Below, piece after piece: positions 54,298 through 63,569 of a stretch of DNA of 64,000 nt. A program made the translations under genes and the position numbers. Source of the stretch: Dictyostelium discoideum (lineage: Eukaryota); NCBI GenBank assembly GCA_000004695.1, contig CM000152.2, positions 992,001 through 1,056,000 of the forward strand, given 5' to 3'. The notes beneath the pieces are model-generated. The model had not been told where the DNA came from, ran no database searches, and worked only from the letters and a program-made list of their open reading frames with translations. Position 1 is the stretch's first letter. Every line of letters begins with the position of its first letter.

Positions 54298-57200
54298 TTA
54301 TAATGGACAATCATTATTTTCTTGAAGTTTTTCAAATTGTTGAGGATTATTTAAATTTTGTTGTTGCTCTTGATCAAAACACATTAACATTGAAATAAAG
54401 GTTAAAATCATTTTAGGTTTAACTTCAACGAGATCTTCCCAAACTACAAATATACAACAACCTATCTTTCTAGCAACATTAATGATGTATTGAGCATTTA
54501 ATTTCTTTTCTTCAAAAGTTTCACCTTTGGTAATGATAGAATAGTTTACAACACTTTGAATTGAATCTAATAGATCAATCAAAAAGATACCATTACCAAT
54601 GGATTGATCTTTGAAACCAGTGATACAAGTTGATTTACCATGTTTTAAAACCTTTTTATTTGCCCATTGAATAATTTCACCTTCATTAAAGAATGAAGAA
54701 GTTGAGGAGGTGGAGGAAGAACTTAGAGATAAATCACCACTTGAGGAATCCTTCAATAATGATAGACGTAAATTTGTCAATAAAGATAATAAATGATATT
54801 TACAAGCTTGCCAAATCAAAGCCAAAGTTAATTTACGATTACCATCATGAATATCTTTACCACCAATACCAACGAGAGAGAAACGTAATTGTTTTGCAAT
54901 GGATATCCCATAGTTGCAATTCTCCAATGCCATATATGCATTTGAAGGTGAAATATTAACCTCTTTCCAATTGACAGAGCCAGATTTAATTTTATCAAAC
55001 ATTTGTAAAATGACTAAACCATCTTGAAGATCCTGTTGTAAATTATTAACATAGGGTTTAATGTTCAAAGAGTTCATCCACATACAGAAAGCACGTTCTT
55101 CTCTTGTACCTTCAACATCTAAATTTACTTTTTCAACCAAAGCACGTTGTTCTTCGATTACTTTAGTCGAAGATTCCGAAGCTTTTATACCAATACCTTT
55201 CTCTGATTTGAAAATACTTGAAAGGAATAGATAAATTAATTTTTGATTTCTATTTTGAATTGATTCTAAATTTAACCATTGGAATATATTAAAAGTTTGT
55301 TTAGATTGTTCAATGATCCATTTGAATTCATCAGATTCTTTTGATTGTTGGTCCACTGATGATTGTTGTAATAGAGCTGTACCACCATTTGCTGCCAAAT
55401 CTTTCTCTAGCGATATGAATAGTTTAATTAAATTCGAAGGTGACGAAGCCAATTGATCCAATGATAGTTTTGTTTTATCTAAAGCTAAATGATAAATGAA
55501 CCAACGTAACAATAGTTTATTAGTTGATTGAACGATGAAATGTTTCATATCTTCATGAGTTTCTTTTAAAACCAATAGAGTTGGATAAGTGTTTATATTG
55601 ATTGAAGATGTTATTTGAACTTTAACCAATTCATATAATAGATTAACCATTTCTTTTGGATCAGATTTTAGAGTTGTAGGTGAGATAGTTGATGGTATAA
55701 CACAACCGATTGCCTTTGCAGAATTGAAAACCAAATTTAAATTTTGATCGATTTCAATGTTACTAGTTGGTTCAATGTTTAAAACTCTTTCATCGATTGT
55801 ACCATCACGTGCAAAATTAACCAATTTACAAAGTAATACACCATCATAGAATGAATGAATGATATGTTTAGTTGAATCTATTGGGAAAACATGTTTAATA
55901 TGTTTATCTACCAAGAGTTGTTCAATCGTATTGACATAGTTAATCAATGGTTCTTCCTCTTCAATATAATAATCTTTTGATTGAGTTGGTTTAACTACTC
56001 TATTGATTTGTTCTTGAATTTGTCTCTTTTTCTCTTGTTCCAATTCCTCTTGTTTCTTTGCATCCATTTGCATTGATAGCTCTCTCTTTAATACTTGATG
56101 TTTTCTAGTTTTCTCTTCAACTTTAACTTGTAATGCTTGATTTTCACTCTTTAATTGAGTTAATTCAATTTGAATAGAATCAAATTCCTCTTTTTTATCT
56201 AATAACTCTACAATTAATAATTCAGATTTCTCTTTATCTTGTTGATGTTGTGTAGTTAACTCTTGAATTTGTAATTTCAATTGTTCAATAATTTGTTCAA
56301 ATTCAATAGTTTGTAATAATAATCTTTTAATCTCTAAACATTTCTCTTTATAATTTTCACCCATTCTATTAAATTTCAATTGATAACACTCTAATGAATT
56401 ATTAAATGAATCTAATAAATCATTGAATCTATCATTTAAACCATTTGAAAGTAATAATAAATTTGAATCACATTTACTATGAATATCAGTGATTGTTGAA
56501 AATTTCAATTGTAATTCTACTAAACTATCATTTAATTGATCAGTTTGAATTTGTTTATCTTGTAATAATTTATCTTTTTCTTGTAATAATTGTAATCTTT
56601 GTTGTGATTCTAATTCTAATTGATTAAATTGTGACATTAACTTTTCCAGTTCTTTATTTAATTGATCTTGAGTTAATTTAGAATTTGAAAGATCAAAACG
56701 AATAGTTTCAATCTCTTTTTTCAATTGAATTATGATTTGATCTTTTTCAACAATTGAACTTTCAAATTGTTCAACTTTATTAATTGAAGAAGATTCCAAT
56801 GATCTAATGATTGATAATTTCTCTTCGATTGAATCTAATTTCTCTTTGATGATTTTATCTTTATCGTTTGTAACCGATTGAAGCTCATTAATTGAAGTGG
56901 TTTGATTAGTAATGATCTCAACTTTCTCTTGAATAGTTTGGTCACGATCTTTAATCAATTGTTGTTTCTCTTTAATTAGGTCATCTTTTTCTCTAATCAA
57001 TTGATCTTTAGTGGAGGATGTATTCTCCAACTCTATGATATCATTGGATTGACGTTGAATCAATTCCGATTTCTCTTTTATCAATTGATCCTTTTCGATT
57101 ATCGATGATTCAAACTCTAATATCAATTGATCCTTTTCATGTAACTGCTTAGTTTTAACTTTAATTTCTAAATCTTTTTCAATTAATTGATTCTCTTTAA

Positions 57201-58056
57201 CCTCTAATAACTCTTGAATGGAATGAATTGATTCAACATGTTTACCAATGACAAAATCTTTCTCATTAATTGATTGTTGAATAGACTCAATGATTTTATC
57301 TTTTTCATTTGATTTAAATTCACCAACCAATACCAATTGGTCCAACTCTTCAATACGTGTTAAATATTCTTTAATTAACTCTAATCTATCTGATAATAAT
57401 GTTTCCAAATCAACGATTTTAACTTGAAATTCAGATTTAATTTCAAAGATTTCTTTATCCTTATCTTGAATACTCTTTTGTTGTTGAATTGAAAATGATT
57501 GTAACTGTTTCTCCATCTCTTCTTTAATTAATTTAATCTCTTCTTCATGTTTTTGTTGTTTAATTTCTTGATTTTCAAATATATTTGATTGTCTTAATTC
57601 ATCTGCTAAACTACCAATAATTGTACAATTATCATTTGTATTATTATTATTACTATTGTTATTGGTAGTAGTATTATCACTACCATTACCGCCATTAATT
57701 AATTGTTGTTGTAATTGTATATTCTCTAATTGTAATTGATCGATTTGATCCTGTAATATTCTATTATGAGATTGAATTGATGAGAAATTATCTTGAAATT
57801 CTTGATTTAATTTATTCAATTCTTTAATTTTCATTAAAAGTTTCTTCTTTTCTTCTTCTTCTTCACCACTCAATTCTTTAAATCTTTTATTTGAATCATA
57901 TTTTGTATATTTATTAATTGAAATTATACAAATTAACATATATAATGCTGATTTTGAATCACTATTTGTATTAATTGATTCAAATGAATCATTTAAACCT
58001 GATAAAATTGAATTATTATTATTATTATTACCGCTAAAATTTGATTCTTTATTCAA
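54298..58056 (-). CDS. Coiled-coil protein ending in a complete fimbrin/plastin-type actin-binding core (4 calponin-homology domains). Very probably the C-terminal part of a larger gene continuing from 58062..60275
   Basis: C-terminal ~500 aa: EERAFCMWMNSLNIKPYVNNLQQDLQDGLVILQMFDKIKSGSVNWKEVN (fimbrin CH3-like) and KKLNAQYIINVARKIGCCIFVVWEDLVEVKPKMILTFISMLM (fimbrin CH4-like, the EDLVEVKPKM motif), plus two upstream CH-like segments. About 700 aa of heptad-rich coiled coil precede them. The ORF-track start is TTG, and the first ATG lies ~38 codons in. Confidence 0.8.
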   Translation of the reverse strand: MNKESNFSGNNNNNNSILSGLNDSFESINTNSDSKSALYMLICIISINKYTKYDSNKRFKELSGEEEEEKKKLLMKIKELNKLNQEFQDNFSSIQSHNRILQDQIDQLQLENIQLQQQLINGGNGSDNTTTNNNSNNNNTNDNCTIIGSLADELRQSNIFENQEIKQQKHEEEIKLIKEEMEKQLQSFSIQQQKSIQDKDKEIFEIKSEFQVKIVDLETLLSDRLELIKEYLTRIEELDQLVLVGEFKSNEKDKIIESIQQSINEKDFVIGKHVESIHSIQELLEVKENQLIEKDLEIKVKTKQLHEKDQLILEFESSIIEKDQLIKEKSELIQRQSNDIIELENTSSTKDQLIREKDDLIKEKQQLIKDRDQTIQEKVEIITNQTTSINELQSVTNDKDKIIKEKLDSIEEKLSIIRSLESSSINKVEQFESSIVEKDQIIIQLKKEIETIRFDLSNSKLTQDQLNKELEKLMSQFNQLELESQQRLQLLQEKDKLLQDKQIQTDQLNDSLVELQLKFSTITDIHSKCDSNLLLLSNGLNDRFNDLLDSFNNSLECYQLKFNRMGENYKEKCLEIKRLLLQTIEFEQIIEQLKLQIQELTTQHQQDKEKSELLIVELLDKKEEFDSIQIELTQLKSENQALQVKVEEKTRKHQVLKRELSMQMDAKKQEELEQEKKRQIQEQINRVVKPTQSKDYYIEEEEPLINYVNTIEQLLVDKHIKHVFPIDSTKHIIHSFYDGVLLCKLVNFARDGTIDERVLNIEPTSNIEIDQNLNLVFNSAKAIGCVIPSTISPTTLKSDPKEMVNLLYELVKVQITSSININTYPTLLVLKETHEDMKHFIVQSTNKLLLRWFIYHLALDKTKLSLDQLASSPSNLIKLFISLEKDLAANGGTALLQQSSVDQQSKESDEFKWIIEQSKQTFNIFQWLNLESIQNRNQKLIYLFLSSIFKSEKGIGIKASESSTKVIEEQRALVEKVNLDVEGTREERAFCMWMNSLNIKPYVNNLQQDLQDGLVILQMFDKIKSGSVNWKEVNISPSNAYMALENCNYGISIAKQLRFSLVGIGGKDIHDGNRKLTLALIWQACKYHLLSLLTNLRLSLLKDSSSGDLSLSSSSTSSTSSFFNEGEIIQWANKKVLKHGKSTCITGFKDQSIGNGIFLIDLLDSIQSVVNYSIITKGETFEEKKLNAQYIINVARKIGCCIFVVWEDLVEVKPKMILTFISMLMCFDQEQQQNLNNPQQFEKLQENNDCPL

Positions 58057-58061
58057 TTTTT

Positions 58062-58117
58062 CTAATAAATATTTTTTGAATTATTCTTATTATTATTAAT
58101 ATTATTATTATTATAAA

Positions 58118-58157
<40 letters not shown>

Positions 58158-60275
58158 ATTATTAATATCTTGAATTGTGGAATATAAATTATTGGTATTA
58201 TTATTATTATTATTATTACTTGAATAATTTAAAGATATTGAATTTGAATCATTTTCTAAAAATGAAATTAAAGTTGAAATTAAAGAACAATCATCTAAAT
58301 TTATAATTTCAGATTCTAAACGTGATAATAAAGAACGTGCATCAGAGAGTACTCTAAGATTTGTAATTTTTGGAGTTGATGAAATTAATTCTTCATTTCT
58401 AATTAAATCATTATAAGCAGATTTTAAAATTAATTCAGGATTTTTAAGTGATCTTGATTCTGGTGATAATTGAGTTTGTTCAACTTGAATTTGAAGTTGT
58501 TTATTTTTTTGACGTAAAAGTTTGACTTTACTCTTTAATTTTTCAAATTCACTCTCATCGATTTTTGTATCCAATTGATACTTTAGATCATGTACACTCG
58601 TTTGTAATGACTCATTTGCATTCAATAGTCTATCACGATTTTTTATTAATCTACCCTGAGACGATTGCAATCCCTCCACTGCCAATTTCAATTCCTCAAT
58701 CTCCTCTTTCTGTTGTTTAATGGTTTTAGTTTTCATTGGACTATTGAAATCAATGATTGATTTTAATTTACTATTCTTTTCATCCAATTGATTTGATAAT
58801 TCAAATTCTTTGAAAACCAATATCTCATTCTCTTGCTTGGCCGTCGAGACTTGGTTAGAGAGGAACGCATTCTCGTTCTTTAATTTATCAACCTGTTCAT
58901 TGAAAAGTTTTAAACTCTCATTCAAAGCCTCTTGCTCTTGTAGACGTTGTTTCAATGCTTTCATCTCCTCTTCCAAATCTTCATTCTTTTCCAATAATGA
59001 TTGACCAATCTCTGCTGCAACTCTTGTATCTTTTTCTTTCTCTTCCAATAGTTTCTCAGTTTGTTCTAAAATTACCTTATGATCCAATTTAAACATCATA
59101 GTATAGGATTTATTCTTTTGAACATTTAAATTTTTAAATGGTGTAAAATTTTGGAATTCTCTTTTAATTGTACTACCATTATCAATACTACCATTGTTAT
59201 TGCTATTGTTGCTATTCTCAATTTGTTGTGATCTCCTTCTACCAACAATTGATGAAATTGATTTAGTTCTTCTATAATTTGATCTATCAAATCCTTCATC
59301 ATTTTCTTGTTGATTTAATGGTGTCATTGGTGGTGACATACCAGTTGATGATGAAAGTGGTGATCCATTATTATTCTTTGGTGTTGTTGTTGTTGTTGTT
59401 GTTATTGTTGTTGAATTATTAAAATATACAGTACCACCATTAAATTGATTTGATTGTGGTGTTTGTTGTGGGGTTTGTTCAGATGTATGTGATTGTGATG
59501 GCTGTGATTGTGATTGTGGTGGTTGTGGGGTTTGTGGTGTTTGATTCATATACAATTGTTGTTGAGCTGGTGTTAATTTTGTACTTTGTCTATTTGATTT
59601 TTTATTATTATTATTTGTAAATTCAGAAGGTGAAATATTTGAAGGTGGTGATAAACTACCTTGTGGTGAAAATGTTGTACTCTTTCTATGAGGTGATTTA
59701 TTATCTTGTTGCATATGTGAAACTAATTTACTATTTAATTTACCATATTTAAATAATGGTTGAAATTCTTTTTGATTTAATTTCCTCTTCAGTCTAAGAT
59801 AGGATGTCTCCTTTTGATAATGTTCAACTGTTAAATTCTTAATTTCTTCTGCTGTTAAATATTCATTCTCTTCCAATGATAATTCATTAACGAATGAATC
59901 ATATCTTTGATTTCTTTGATTTCTATATGTTTCAATATCTTTATAATATTCATTCATCCATTTTTTCAATATAATTGTATTATTATTATTATTATTATTA
60001 CTATCTATTTTTGATTTTACATTTTTACTATTATTATTAGTATTAGTATTAGTATTGGTATTGGTATTGGTATTGGTATCTTCATCTGATGAAGAGTCAC
60101 TTTCAATTTCATCATCATCAAAATTATCATCAAATATTGTTACACCTGTAAATAATGACATATCAATTTCTTTGACGGCTGTTTGATTGCTTAAATTTGA
60201 TTGATCCATCGCTGTTGTTGTTGTTGCTGATGACGATGTCGTAGTGTTACTAGTCGCCGTTTCTGTTGTCTCCAT
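58062..60275 (-). CDS. Ser/Thr/Asn-rich plus coiled-coil protein (737 aa). Likely the N-terminal portion of the fimbrin-like gene at 54298..58056
   Basis: ATG at 60275 (METTETATSNTTT...). The C-terminal coiled coil is followed by an Asn-rich tail ending ...NKNNSKNIY* at 58062. The next ORF on the same strand begins 6 nt later, offset by one nucleotide. Confidence 0.6.
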
Positions 60276-60757
60276 GAAATCGGTGTTATATTATATGTAT
60301 TTAAAAAAAATAAAAATTCAATTTATAAAAAAAAGATTTTTTTTTTTGTTTTTTTTTTTTTGTTTTTTTTTGTTTTTTTGGTTTTTATAAATATATTTTT
60401 TTTTTTTTTTTTTTTACTTTTTTTGTTGTTACACACCAAACAAGATTTGGAAAAAAAAAAAAAATTAAAAAAAAAAAAAATAAAAAAAAGAAAAAAATTA
60501 AATTTTTTTTTAGGCGGTTGGGGCATAACTGAAAAAAAAAAAAAAATTTTTTTTTTTTTTTTTTTAAATTTTTTTTAAGTGTTTTTTTTTTTTTTTTTTA
60601 AATTTTTTCTTTTTTTTTTTTTTTTCAAGATAAAATTTCCTTTATTATAAAATTTTATAAATCGATTCCCTTAATATTTAATTTCAGCTGATTTTCCTAA
60701 TTTAGCTTTTTTAATATTTTATTTTATTATTTTTTTTTTTTTTTTATTTTCATTTTT

Positions 60758-60792
<35 letters not shown>

Positions 60793-60855
60793 TTATTTTT
60801 TATTCCGCATCACATTAACAAAAATATTTTTATTTGTTTTTTTTTTCTTTAAAAA

Positions 60856-63569
60856 ATGGGACCAAAAAAAAACAATAGGAATAAATCCAAAAATAACACC
60901 AATACCACCAGTGTTAAGCCTAAAGTTGATGAAGAAATTTTATCACAAGATCCAGTTTCAACTGAAGATACACCAACTCTTTTATCACCTCCATCAGAAA
61001 TTACACCAGATGAACCATCTTCAATAGTTGAAGAGAATAAAAAACAAAATAATGATAATAATAATAATGAGAGAAAAGATAATATAGTTGAATCTGTTGA
61101 AGAAAAAGAATTAATTTGTAATAATAATAATAATGAAAATAAAGATGAAAATAATAATAATAAAACTACAACTGCTACTACCACTACCACTACCGCCACT
61201 ACAAATGTAAAATTAGAAAATAATAATAATAATAACAATAATATAAATAATGAAATTAAAGAAATTATTAATGAAGATGATGATGATAATAATAATAATA
61301 ATGAAATAAATAAAGATTGGAAAACATTATATTTTATAACAAGTAAACAAATGAATTTAGAAAGAATTAAAACTGAAACATTAGAAAGTTTAATTATTCA
61401 AAAGGATAAAGAGAATCAACAATTATTGGAACAAGTTACTAGATTAGAAACAGAATTATTAACTGAAAGAAGAAGAATCAATAGAACCGTTGGTACAATT
61501 AGACATGGTACAAGAAAACTTTTAAGTACTGTTAAATTTGATCATAATATTGATATCGCTTCAATCATTGATGATTTAAATAATATTGACTCCTCAATTT
61601 CTGCATCACCCTCATTCGCTGATGACTTAAATTTAACATCTGCTTCAATCCTAAATTCAAATAGTAATAGTTTCTCTGATTTCAGTTCTGATCAATTATT
61701 AAATAAATTGAATAGTTATCATAATTCATCTTCATCTTTAAATAGTAATACTAATAATAATAATAATAATAATAATAATAGTCATCACCATCATCATCAA
61801 AATAATAGTATTGAACGTTCAATTAATTTAAGTAATGGTCCTAGTATTGGTGGTACAATTAGATTATCAACATCAACTAATTCTGTTAATTCAATTAGTG
61901 TTGGTAGTGATTCCGGTAATAATGCAACCACTACTACTGCTACTACTACTGCAACCAATACCAATGCCAATGCTACATCAACAACATCAACATCATTATC
62001 AACAACAACAACAACAACAACTACAACAACAGCAACATCACCAACCATTACAATTAATCCACCACCATTACAAAGGGATTATATTGAATGTATTACAGTT
62101 GTACAATCATTAGTTAGAAGATGGTTAGCAAGAAAGAGATACAAGAAATTAAGAACCAAGAGAGCAATCGTTGAAGAATTATTTGAAACTGAATCAACCT
62201 ATGTCAATCATTTATCAAATCTTTTAAAGATTTTCATCAATCCATTAAAAGCTAAAAAAGGTGATTCAATCTTACCAGCTGATGATTTTGATCAAATCTT
62301 CTCTTCAATTCAAACAATCTATAAAACAAATTCTTACTTTTTAGATCAAGTTGATGAAATATTTAAAAAGTTTAATAAATGGTCATGTTTTGGTGAAAAA
62401 GTTTTAAAATTAGTACGTATATTTAATTTTTAAATAATAATAATAATTTAAAATATTAAATATTAATTTTTATATTTTTTTTTTGACTCTCTCTTACTTA
62501 GGTACCATTATTTAATTGTTATATAGATTATATTATAAACTTTGAATGTTCACAAAAATATTTAAAGAAAGCGTTAAGTAGTAATTCAACATTTGCAAAC
62601 TTTGTTAAACAAGGTAATGCCAAGAAAGAATTGGATGATTTAGATCTTGAAGATTTATTGATTATGCCAGTTCAAAGAATTCCACGTTATATTATGTTAT
62701 TCAAAGAGATTAGAAAGTTTACACCATTATATCATAACGATTTCAGTGGTATCGATAAGACATTGGAAGCATTCAAAGCATTTGCTCAAAAGGTAAACAC
62801 TCAATCTGGTTTCAGAAAAAAGGTTTTACAATTGGAAGATAGAATTTTAAATTATAAAGATGATATCACTTCAAACTCTAGAATCCTTTTAAGAGAGGGT
62901 CCTTTGAAATTTAAAAAATCAAGTGAATATGTATTTTTATTTAATGATATGATTTTAGTTTGTCATCCATCACATTCTAAAAAAAATAAATCAAAATTAT
63001 CATTAGGTACACCAGTAACTACTGTAAATAATAATAATAATAATAATAATAGTAATAATAATAGTAATAATAGTAATAATAATAATAGTAGTAGCAGTAA
63101 TAATAATAATAATAATAATAGTGGTAATGGTAATACACCAACATCAACAACACCAATTATTATATCAACAAATCCACCATCTTCACCACCAACTTTAAGA
63201 GAAACAACATCAAGTATGAATTTACTCGAAAACTCTCATTCATCAACTGTAGTTAATGTTTTAGGTTCAAGTAATGGAAGTAATCAATCATTGAACTCAT
63301 TGGTTGTTAATGAATTCCATAGTAGTAATGTTGATATTAATTTCAAATTCTTACAAAAATATCCATTAGATTCAAGAGTTAAAATCATTCAAGATTTAAC
63401 TGAACCAAAATTCACCGTTTTAGTACCAGACTCTTACAGTATTGACTTTTTCGCAACTACAATTGAAGAAAGACAAGTTTGGGTTTCTGAAATTAATAAA
63501 TTACTTACCGTAATTTCAAATAATTGTTTGGATAAAGCAAATTTAGATCTTATAAATTCTTTACAATAA
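60856..63569 (+). CDS. RhoGEF (Dbl-homology domain) protein with an IQ motif and a C-terminal PH-like region (about 874 aa). Exons 60856..62412 and 62502..63569
   Basis: IQ-like ITVVQSLVRRWLARKRYKKLR, immediately followed by the DH start AIVEELFETESTYVNHLSNLLKIF. Donor TTA|GTACGT at 62413. Acceptor cttacttag|GTA at 62501/62502, phase 0. The DH end LIMPVQRIPRYIMLFKEIRKFTP lies in exon 2. N-terminal Asn/Thr/Asp-rich region with a short coiled coil. Confidence 0.75.

Follow-up and report, generated by a model that had tools for sequence, protein, structure and literature searches.

A Fimbrin Core on a Helical Rod in Dictyostelium discoideum as Probable Part of a Longer Gene Specific to Dictyostelia

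Fimbrins are usually described with one invariant architecture, EF-hands followed by four CH domains. How to interpret a fimbrin-like protein that departs from this plan is the question raised by a locus in the stretch of Dictyostelium discoideum AX4 DNA analyzed here (the window: 64,000 nucleotides (nt) of contig CM000152.2, positions 992,001 to 1,056,000). On the reverse strand of the window, at 54298..58056, lies an open reading frame (ORF) of 1252 codons plus stop, with exactly the coordinates given by the first-pass annotation, which saw in it a complete four-CH bundling core fused to a long coiled coil in place of EF-hands. The analysis favors, as a likely though not assured reading, that this ORF constitutes the 3′ two-thirds of a single Dictyostelia-specific “long fimbrin” gene of ~1,990 amino acids (aa), which encodes an actin cross-linker with added N-terminal partner-binding modules.

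The ORF is a genuine gene that was annotated earlier. Its product is 100% identical to the D. discoideum AX4 “actin binding protein” XP_642432.1 / EAL68445.1 / UniProt Q54XX0; the 1213 aa of Q54XX0 correspond to the ORF from Met40 onward (ATG 57939..57937). The bare combination of a rod with four CH domains is thus no discovery. What is new here is that the existing gene model is probably truncated or split, that a protein of ~1,600–2,000 aa is present throughout the dictyostelids, and that this protein carries two unexpected N-terminal modules.

The fimbrin core is the best defined part of the protein. The Pfam CH profile matches the ORF at E=8.6e-40 in four stretches, and the four motifs in which the first-pass annotation recognized fimbrin CH3 and CH4 are all present in these two domains (Table 1). 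The likeness is fimbrin-wide. Thus, residues 700–1227 align as one collinear stretch with positions 8–502 of 506 of the Arabidopsis fimbrin core (1pxy; E=4e-85), with positions 121–623 of plastin-3 (7r94; E=4e-77), and with positions 12–512 of Schizosaccharomyces pombe fimbrin (1rt8; E=3.4e-74); outside the fimbrins, the best-scoring CH proteins, which are two-CH proteins such as utrophin and filamin, reach only E~1e-10 over one CH domain. These collinear alignments place the similarity beyond chance and beyond generic single-CH resemblance, and the profile search of the C-terminal region accordingly bears out the claim of a complete core with four CH domains. CH2 is the most divergent of the four; despite its weak score, its match spans positions 3–105 of the 109 positions of the profile.

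Homology to fimbrins begins exactly at the first helix of CH1, where YYIEEEEPLINYVN aligns with YSEEEKYAFVNWIN of plastin-3. The absence of EF-hands, also claimed at first sight, is upheld: no EF-hand family was detected by Pfam at E<=1 in this ORF, in the upstream ORF described below, or in the orthologues. The canonical fimbrins recovered with the core, in contrast, list the EF-hand families PF13499, PF00036, and PF13405. Core identity is 55–95% among the long forms and 36–40% to the canonical fimbrins of Amoebozoa, fungi, plants, and other groups. The canonical EF-hand fimbrin (FimA) of the dictyostelid Heterostelium, with 36.6% identity, is no closer than the fimbrins of plants or fungi, and in a neighbor-joining tree the long-form cores make up a separate dictyostelid clade. 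None of the 120 best core matches is longer than 863 aa; it should be noted that this search omitted the query protein and its known orthologues, so that the lack of D. discoideum paralogues among its matches is weak evidence. When aligned, neither 1pxy nor plastin-3 shows anything corresponding to the serine-rich insertion in the CH3–CH4 linker; in D. purpureum the same linker is much shorter and contains no serine run.

The second line of evidence comes from the relatives of D. discoideum. In all six other dictyostelid sequences, this ORF and the 737-aa ORF immediately upstream of it correspond to one gene, whose product measures 1586–1977 aa where it is given whole, and every long orthologue extends from a region resembling the upstream ORF (58062..60275) as far as the four CH domains. 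In D. firmibasis, a single uninterrupted exon of 5934 nt encodes the orthologue (1977 aa); the T. lacteum protein measures 1920 aa. Two full-length paralogues of Acytostelium subglobosum (P0126 and P0127; 1617 and 1586 aa) and a Synstelium polycarpum orthologue of 1799 aa came from an exhaustive profile search. In D. purpureum, one gene (GL871036.1; L002 3836–9643) is represented by two partial models, DICPUDRAFT_32303 (695 aa) and DICPUDRAFT_14945 (1187 aa), each of which covers one half: the upstream part reads to ...SKSALYM, an intron of 89 nt (GTATGT...TAG) comes next at L002 5912–6000, and the coding sequence resumes with LICIISINKYTKYD. The exhaustive search, made with HMMER, replaced a word-indexed search with the whole ORF, which was swamped and yielded 4 matches. 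It returned only 25 proteins at E<=1e-3, and every long protein among them is from Dictyostelia; the others are short fragments or small proteins centered on the CC1-box discussed below, one of them from Ancoracysta twista.

The first-pass annotation had allowed for a further ~740 aa upstream, and in all orthologues examined these residues do belong to the same protein; in the window, though, they are out of frame and end in a stop, a point that this annotation had missed. The upstream ORF ends ...NSKNIY* (TAG at 58064..58062), 5 nt from the downstream ORF, whose frame is offset by one base. When the AX4 DNA (aat tca aaa aat a-t tta tta gaa aaa ttg) is aligned with that of D. firmibasis (aat tca aaa aat aat tta ttg gaa aaa tta), one A is found to be missing near 58070 within a linker that encodes poly-asparagine. 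The absence of this A separates the halves and accounts for the truncated annotation of 1213 aa. With the extra A restored, the junction sequence would be aaaaatAatttatta, and the peptide that spans it would be NSKNNLLEKLNK. Moreover, the segments LLEKLNKES, ILSGLNDSFES, and SKSALYM share the reading frame of the downstream ORF and yet are found upstream of the annotated ATG. As these conserved coding residues precede it, the annotated start is internal to a longer coding sequence.

Both halves of the gene are under strong purifying selection. In comparison with D. firmibasis, the ratio of nonsynonymous to synonymous divergence (dN/dS) is 0.064 in the NTR-like region, 0.05 in the CC1 region, 0.14 in the rod, and 0.08 in the core, with dS of 0.45–0.74 in these four. 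The value for the 39 codons that precede the ATG, 1.36, was disregarded, as it comes from too few codons in a low-complexity alignment. Since both halves are so constrained, the AX4 break could be an error of the reference sequence or a very recent lesion.

Between the junction and the core lies a proline-free rod. AlphaFold2 (AF2) predicts five helices in it, at ORF residues 55–121, 146–242, 252–453, 464–562, and 568–687 (16–82, 107–203, 213–414, 425–523, and 529–648 of the annotated protein); these account for 585 of 663 residues, mostly at pLDDT 70–85, in a run made as a monomer with a three-sequence alignment (pTM 0.19). About 600 consecutive residues contain no proline; ~50% are charged or glutamine, and ~29% are leucine, isoleucine, valine, or methionine. 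Self-identity peaks at lags 7, 14, 21, 42, and 49 in every Dictyostelium species, with hydrophobic autocorrelation of 0.13–0.20 at lags 7/14/21. The element is thus a heptad-periodic helical rod and probably a coiled coil. The call of a coiled coil rests on the AF2 helices, the absence of proline, and the period-7 autocorrelation, because heptad scoring and Fourier analysis gave weak or non-significant results. Of the ~700 aa of coiled coil originally proposed to stand in place of the EF-hands, the position and the helical, heptad-periodic character are retained; the length is reduced to ~630 aa.

At ~56400–57200 (ORF residues ~290–550) the D. discoideum rod has runs of near-identical heptads with one adjacent leucine–isoleucine pair (KDQLIRE KDDLIKE KQQLIKD RDQTIQE). 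The equivalent region has been expanded into very regular repeats in T. lacteum, with a 21-residue period, and in Synstelium polycarpum, with periods of 14/28 and 40% self-identity; rod length is therefore evolutionarily plastic, ranging from 424 to 764 aa. Just before the rod, between two coiled-coil regions, 57895–57957 (ORF residues 34–54) encodes SKSALYMLICIISINKYTKYD, which is unusually hydrophobic and strongly conserved. This block matches Pfam DUF5904 weakly (E=0.028, and 0.29 for its D. firmibasis counterpart), and its AF2 confidence is low.

The N-terminal third was initially described as serine-, threonine-, and asparagine-rich sequence with coiled coil. It is not only that: it also contains two regions related to known interaction modules. 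The region that begins ILKKWMNEYYKDIETYRNQRNQRYDSF and ends EHYQKETSYLRLKRKLNQKEFQPLF resembles the N-terminal regulatory region (NTR), i.e., the MOB-binding region, of NDR/LATS kinases. Searched as a single sequence, it has one PDB match, the N-terminal fragment of NDR2 (STK38L) crystallized with MOB (5xqz; E=0.14). With a four-orthologue profile, 5xqz reaches E=5.7e-6, the next six matches are NTRs of LATS1, Dbf2, and Cbk1, and 7 of the 8 PDB matches are NTRs. The homology spans about 65 residues. Mutation of Tyr31, Arg41, Arg44, Thr74, or Arg78 abolishes MOB1 binding by NDR1 (PMC4917820); the equivalents here are Y, R, R, T, and R, and they are kept in all orthologues that include the region, the threonine being replaced by serine in two orthologues, as in LATS1.

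No protein-kinase family follows the region, according to Pfam, in either the upstream ORF or the full-length orthologues. Because the similarity continues to the LxxxDF/EF element that precedes the kinase domain in NDR kinases, the sequence suggests an origin from a truncated NDR kinase gene. The region shares with the NTRs of NDR, LATS, Dbf2, and Cbk1 both the ~65-residue homology and all five MOB1-contact residues, and differs from them in having no kinase domain behind it; among the sequences and literature examined, no other NTR was found outside an AGC kinase. In P0127 of A. subglobosum the second half of the region is degenerate (LESDNLRRLRS instead of KETSYLRLKRK). Farther on, within a variable linker rich in serine, threonine, glutamine, and proline, all dictyostelid orthologues keep NYRRTKSISSI, which resembles a basophilic kinase site.

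The second region is a candidate CC1-box, the element with which dynein adaptors contact the dynein light intermediate chain (LIC). Residues 393–449 of the upstream ORF contain EKEKDTRVAAEIGQSLLEKNEDLEEEM, in which AAEIG is invariant in 7/7 orthologues and aligns with A129, A130, I132, and G133 of TRAK2 as well as with BICDL1. Mutation of A129, A130, or I132 impairs dynein binding by TRAK2 (PMC8319186), and LIC-binding roles have been assigned to the residues of the AAxxG box and to the adjacent isoleucine or tyrosine (PMC8319186, PMC9481740). The orthologue profile matches two adaptors, TRAK2 (9dgv; E=0.025) and BICDL1 (6f1t; E=0.078), precisely over the CC1-box of each. Apart from CH, the Pfam family that keeps recurring is HAP1_N: it matches this part of the upstream ORF at E=1.7e-7 and is found again below threshold (15.7–29.8 bits), always over profile positions ~64–117, in 3/5 orthologues or paralogues scanned and in 6/6 unrelated profile matches scanned. 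Conservation of the CC1 block (0.78) equals that of the best part of the fimbrin core (0.78–0.81). A word-indexed search with the alignment of the CC1 region gave no match at E<=0.001, probably because coiled-coil words swamped it. The same block also turns up in unrelated eukaryotes, in short proteins or fragments such as P0139 of Ancoracysta twista; P0145 has two copies.

In TRAKs, ~300 residues in two coiled-coil segments separate the CC1-box from the Spindly motif (PMC8319186). The helices that AF2 predicts after the box comprise 88 and 83 residues in two segments, about 25 nm in total, and are followed by short helices; the dynactin filament that an adaptor's coiled coil spans measures ~37 nm. 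No Spindly motif is conserved among the orthologues ahead of the ALYM motif. Beyond it, SLADEL is a candidate, as LADEL fits the pattern of leucine, hydrophobic, any residue, glutamate, hydrophobic (PMC9481740); in 6/7 orthologues a proline/glycine-rich break is followed by S[LMF]ADEL where the second rod helix starts.

Table 1. Positions in the window of the features of the long-fimbrin locus. Residues are those of the 1252-codon ORF unless marked u (upstream ORF).
Feature	Position	Strand	Residues	Basis or remark
Fimbrin actin-cross-linking core, complete	54376..55959	-	700–1227	Collinear with solved fimbrin/plastin cores
CH1, first half of actin-binding domain (ABD) 1	55618..55875	-	728–813	Pfam CH E=1.6e-9, segment scanned alone
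CH2, most divergent CH	55207..55524	-	845–950	Pfam CH E=0.021 alone; also aligned inside fimbrin core
CH3, first half of ABD2	54805..55101	-	986–1084	Pfam CH E=3.3e-18; MWMNSLN (992–998), DLQDGLVILQMFDKI (1009–1023), VNWKEVN (1028–1034)
CH4	54382..54684	-	1125–1225	Pfam CH E=6.1e-14; EDLVEVKPKMILTF (1207–1220)
Serine-rich low-complexity insertion, CH3–CH4 linker	54688..54756	-	1101–1123	Alignment with 1pxy and plastin-3
Alpha-helical rod, proline-free, heptad-periodic	55996..57894	-	55–687 (~630 aa)	AF2 and autocorrelation
SLADEL, candidate Spindly-like motif	57595..57612	-	149–154	Start of helix after first rod break
Conserved coding sequence straddling annotated ATG (ILSGLNDSFES ... SKSALYM/LICIISINKYTKYD)	57895..58056	-		Orthologue conservation
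Frame break, TCAAAAAATATTTATTAG	58062..58077	-		aaaaataatttattg in D. firmibasis
Upstream ORF, N-terminal third of ancestral gene	58062..60275	-	737 aa	dN/dS 0.16 vs. D. firmibasis
Second coiled-coil segment of CC1 region	58473..58721	-	u519–601	AF2
110-residue helix with CC1-box	58752..59081	-	u399–508	AF2 pLDDT >90
CC1-box AAEIG	59004..59018	-	u420–424	Orthologue conservation
Basic serine-rich motif NYRRTKSISSI	59247..59279	-	u333–343	Candidate phosphorylation site, sequence conservation only
NDR/LATS-type N-terminal regulatory (MOB-binding) region, kinase-less	59751..59972	-	u102–175	ILKKWMNEYYKDIETYRNQRNQRYDSF...EHYQKETSYLRLKRKLNQKEFQPLF
Conserved N-terminal motif MSLFTGVTIFDD	60126..60161	-	u39–50	Orthologue conservation

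The architecture, the lack of EF-hands, the single gene in the relatives, the one-nucleotide difference, and the motif homologies with their conserved functional residues are direct observations. Several results nevertheless weigh against the reading of the locus as one long, multi-partner fimbrin. CH2, scanned alone, falls under the Pfam threshold. The two halves are out of frame in the window, so that the full-length protein may not exist in AX4. The HAP1_N match (31.2 bits) never reaches the gathering score of 33.9, TRAK2 and BICDL1 are weakly matched in the PDB (E=0.025–0.15), amid generic coiled-coil noise, and the coiled coil breaks ~88 residues after the CC1-box. The Spindly-like motif is 327–469 residues past that box and deviates in T. 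lacteum (QDDEL). In the rod, autocorrelation at lags 3 and 4 is near 0, i.e., the classical 3/4 hydrophobic spacing is absent, and Fourier power at period 3.5 over the whole rod is not above that of shuffled sequences; for these two reasons the rod may not be a canonical two-stranded coiled coil. Finally, actin binding, dimerization, and the binding of MOB and dynein are all properties that we infer.

The frame break also lends itself to rival explanations. Of these, the most substantial is that the split is real in AX4, where a 737-aa protein with the NTR and the CC1-box would be made separately from a 1213-aa protein with the rod and the fimbrin core, the latter starting at the internal methionine and driven by a cryptic promoter in the AT-rich poly-asparagine tract; AX4 would then possess a rod-borne, Ca2+-independent bundler that has none of the N-terminal modules, as the locus was first described. 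The reference does have a stop and a change of frame here, the public annotation is the 1213-aa model, and AX4 is a long-cultured laboratory strain. The junction, at 10.7% GC against 11.7% in the intergenic DNA, is of a composition compatible with an internal promoter; composition is, however, uninformative on this point, as the poly-asparagine tract is as AT-rich as intergenic DNA. Against a real split stand the continuity of the gene in the six other dictyostelid sequences, the spacing of 5 nt between the ORFs, the conservation of LLEKLNKES, ILSGLNDSFES, and SKSALYM between the break and the annotated ATG, and the lack of decay in either half; moreover, a single-base difference in an A/T run is where sequencing errors typically occur. 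We therefore rate a real split as the less probable outcome, albeit one to be taken seriously. Considerably more improbable, in our opinion, is a recently inactivated pseudogene, in which the frameshift would end translation after 737 aa and the fimbrin part would not be made. A premature stop in the ancestral frame is what such a pseudogene would show, and no entry in the protein collection is identical to the 737-aa product, which may thus lack annotation as a protein; this is a weak argument, since P0001 is also unmatched in the contig index. However, the 1252-codon ORF is still open in a genome of ~24% GC (~10–38% across the window), and the low dN/dS of the core and the rod would require the inactivation to be very recent.

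The frame could also be restored in AX4 at the level of RNA or translation, by an intron over the poly-asparagine tract or by −1 ribosomal slippage; this we regard as the least probable of the explanations of the break. An intron from the GT at 58219 to the AG at 58062 (158 nt) would be stop-free, would restore the frame, and has the size and composition typical of Dictyostelium introns. D. firmibasis, however, lacks the acceptor AG (ttattgg) and translates the tract; the intron would cut the NLLEKL motif that is conserved in D. purpureum; and its donor is GTAATA. As to slippage, A_AAA_AAT (58078..58071) fits X_XXY_YYZ in the zero frame, with a stop two codons on, and slippage there would lead into YLLEKLNKES. 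Programmed −1 frameshifting at this site was rejected, because AAAAAAT occurs 391 times in the window, so that the heptamer is not special, and the downstream RNA structure is not unusual (z=−1.5; 17/200 shuffles fold as well). A different alternative concerns the rod, which may not dimerize and may instead be a monomeric spacer or a helical bundle that folds back on itself, making the protein a monomeric fimbrin-like bundler on a long arm. Consistent with this are the lack of a hydrophobic excess at lags 3 or 4, the single adjacent L-I pair in many heptads (KDQLIxE), the Fourier result, a custom heptad score that exceeds the 99th percentile of shuffles in only four rod segments, and the monomeric AF2 run with its low pTM. 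Yet ~29% of leucine, isoleucine, valine, and methionine is too high for a charged single alpha-helix, every Dictyostelium species shows strong periodicity at lags divisible by seven, and helices of 100–200 residues are rarely stable alone. We consider a monomeric rod unlikely.

On the favored reading of one long gene, the following mechanism can be proposed. By analogy with canonical fimbrin, ABD1 and ABD2 would let each chain bind two actin filaments, and the binding would be independent of Ca2+, because neither EF-hands nor a switch helix are present. The rod would probably pair the chains into a dimer of up to ~85 nm, which would place either two bundling cores far apart or the cores at one end and the N-terminal modules at the other. 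The original prediction of a dimerizing, Ca2+-independent cross-linker is a reasonable one. The N-terminal modules would probably recruit a MOB protein and possibly dynein LIC and dynactin, so that the molecule would tether these partners to F-actin rather than serve as a simple bundler. Judged by their sequence, the NTR and the CC1-box make scaffolding of MOB and/or dynein a more probable function than plain cross-linking. A bolder version, which we offer as a speculation that is more apt to fail than to hold, is that the long fimbrin is a dictyostelid invention coupling three systems: the core would sit on cortical F-actin, the CC1-box and SLADEL would recruit dynein via LIC and dynactin, and the NTR would capture MOB. 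The protein would then be an actin-anchored dynein tether under MOB/Hippo-type control, and its NTR the first such “decoy” outside a kinase. If that were true, the tether would be a candidate cortical dynein anchor or actin–microtubule linker.

Comparison with other cross-linkers helps to place this protein. It has in common with canonical fimbrins and plastins (FimA, yeast Sac6/Fim1, plant FIM1–5, and human PLS1–3) the four-CH core, which is 35–40% identical and stays collinear over its whole length, from the first CH1 helix until CH4 ends. It differs from them in the replacement of the EF-hand headpiece and the switch helix by the ~630-aa rod, to which the orthologues add ~740 aa more, and in the serine-rich insertion between CH3 and CH4. 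The four-CH arrangement is said to occur in no other proteins (PMC10533516). The chytrid fimbrins of Spizellomyces, Boothiomyces, and Terramyces (800–863 aa) are likewise extended at the N-terminus and list no EF-hand Pfam families, but their extensions measure only ~200–300 aa and their cores group with those of canonical fimbrins. Cortexillin I/II, alpha-actinin, and interaptin share the design in which CH-type ABDs are held apart by a dimerizing helical rod. These proteins, however, have one N-terminal ABD (2 CH) per chain, whereas here two ABDs (4 CH) are C-terminal, so that a dimer would carry four, and there is no sequence relationship beyond the CH fold.

The CC1-box dynein adaptors (BICD2, BICDL1/BICDR1, Spindly, TRAK1/2, and HAP1) offer a second comparison. 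Here EKE.D..(V/M/I)AAEIG..LL.KN stands at the start of a long helix predicted with high confidence and aligns with the CC1-boxes of TRAK2 and BICDL1, the two alanines, the isoleucine, and the glycine included; a possible Spindly-like motif lies past a break in the coiled coil, and there is a C-terminal “cargo” domain. The differences are the sub-threshold HAP1_N match, the early break of the coiled coil, and the distant, non-invariant Spindly candidate; in addition, the “cargo” domain would bind F-actin, and there is no homology to the C-terminal regions of Milt/TRAK or BICD.

Within D. discoideum, the Dictyostelium fimbrin-like genes are reportedly covered by the CH-domain inventory of Friedberg & Rivero 2010, which is cited in several papers. 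The genes fimB, fimC, and fimD (fimbrin-2, -3, and -4) likewise encode four-CH actin-binding proteins. For fimC and fimD this is the description given in dictyBase, and BLAST revealed a likeness of both to the HAP1_N region of TRAK1/Milton, which was read as coiled-coil likeness (PMC5064798) and which they have in common with the protein described here. The published remark concerns generic coiled coil only and names no CC1-box, NTR, or frame break (PMC5064798). The Q54XX0 gene is very probably one of fimB, fimC, and fimD; the sources examined give no gene symbol for Q54XX0. Literature searches found no functional study of the gene, nor did they find its CC1-box, NTR, or frame break mentioned. 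Upstream of the locus, 60276–60855 is an intergenic stretch of 580 bp with ~12% GC between the start of the 737-aa ORF and a divergent 525-aa ORF (60856..62433, forward strand); it is likely the promoter region shared by both.

In practice, the public gene models (1213 aa in AX4, and the pair of partial ones in D. purpureum) are probably truncated or split; knock-outs, tags, and proteomic searches derived from them would misrepresent the protein. In the dictyostelid clade, which includes a genetically tractable model organism, the fimbrin bundling core has been put to new use on a long rod, presumably free of calcium control. Provided that the N-terminal motifs function, the protein connects F-actin with dynein and/or MOB signaling, and it would be a testable candidate for attaching microtubule motors or Hippo-type modules to the actin cortex of an amoeba.

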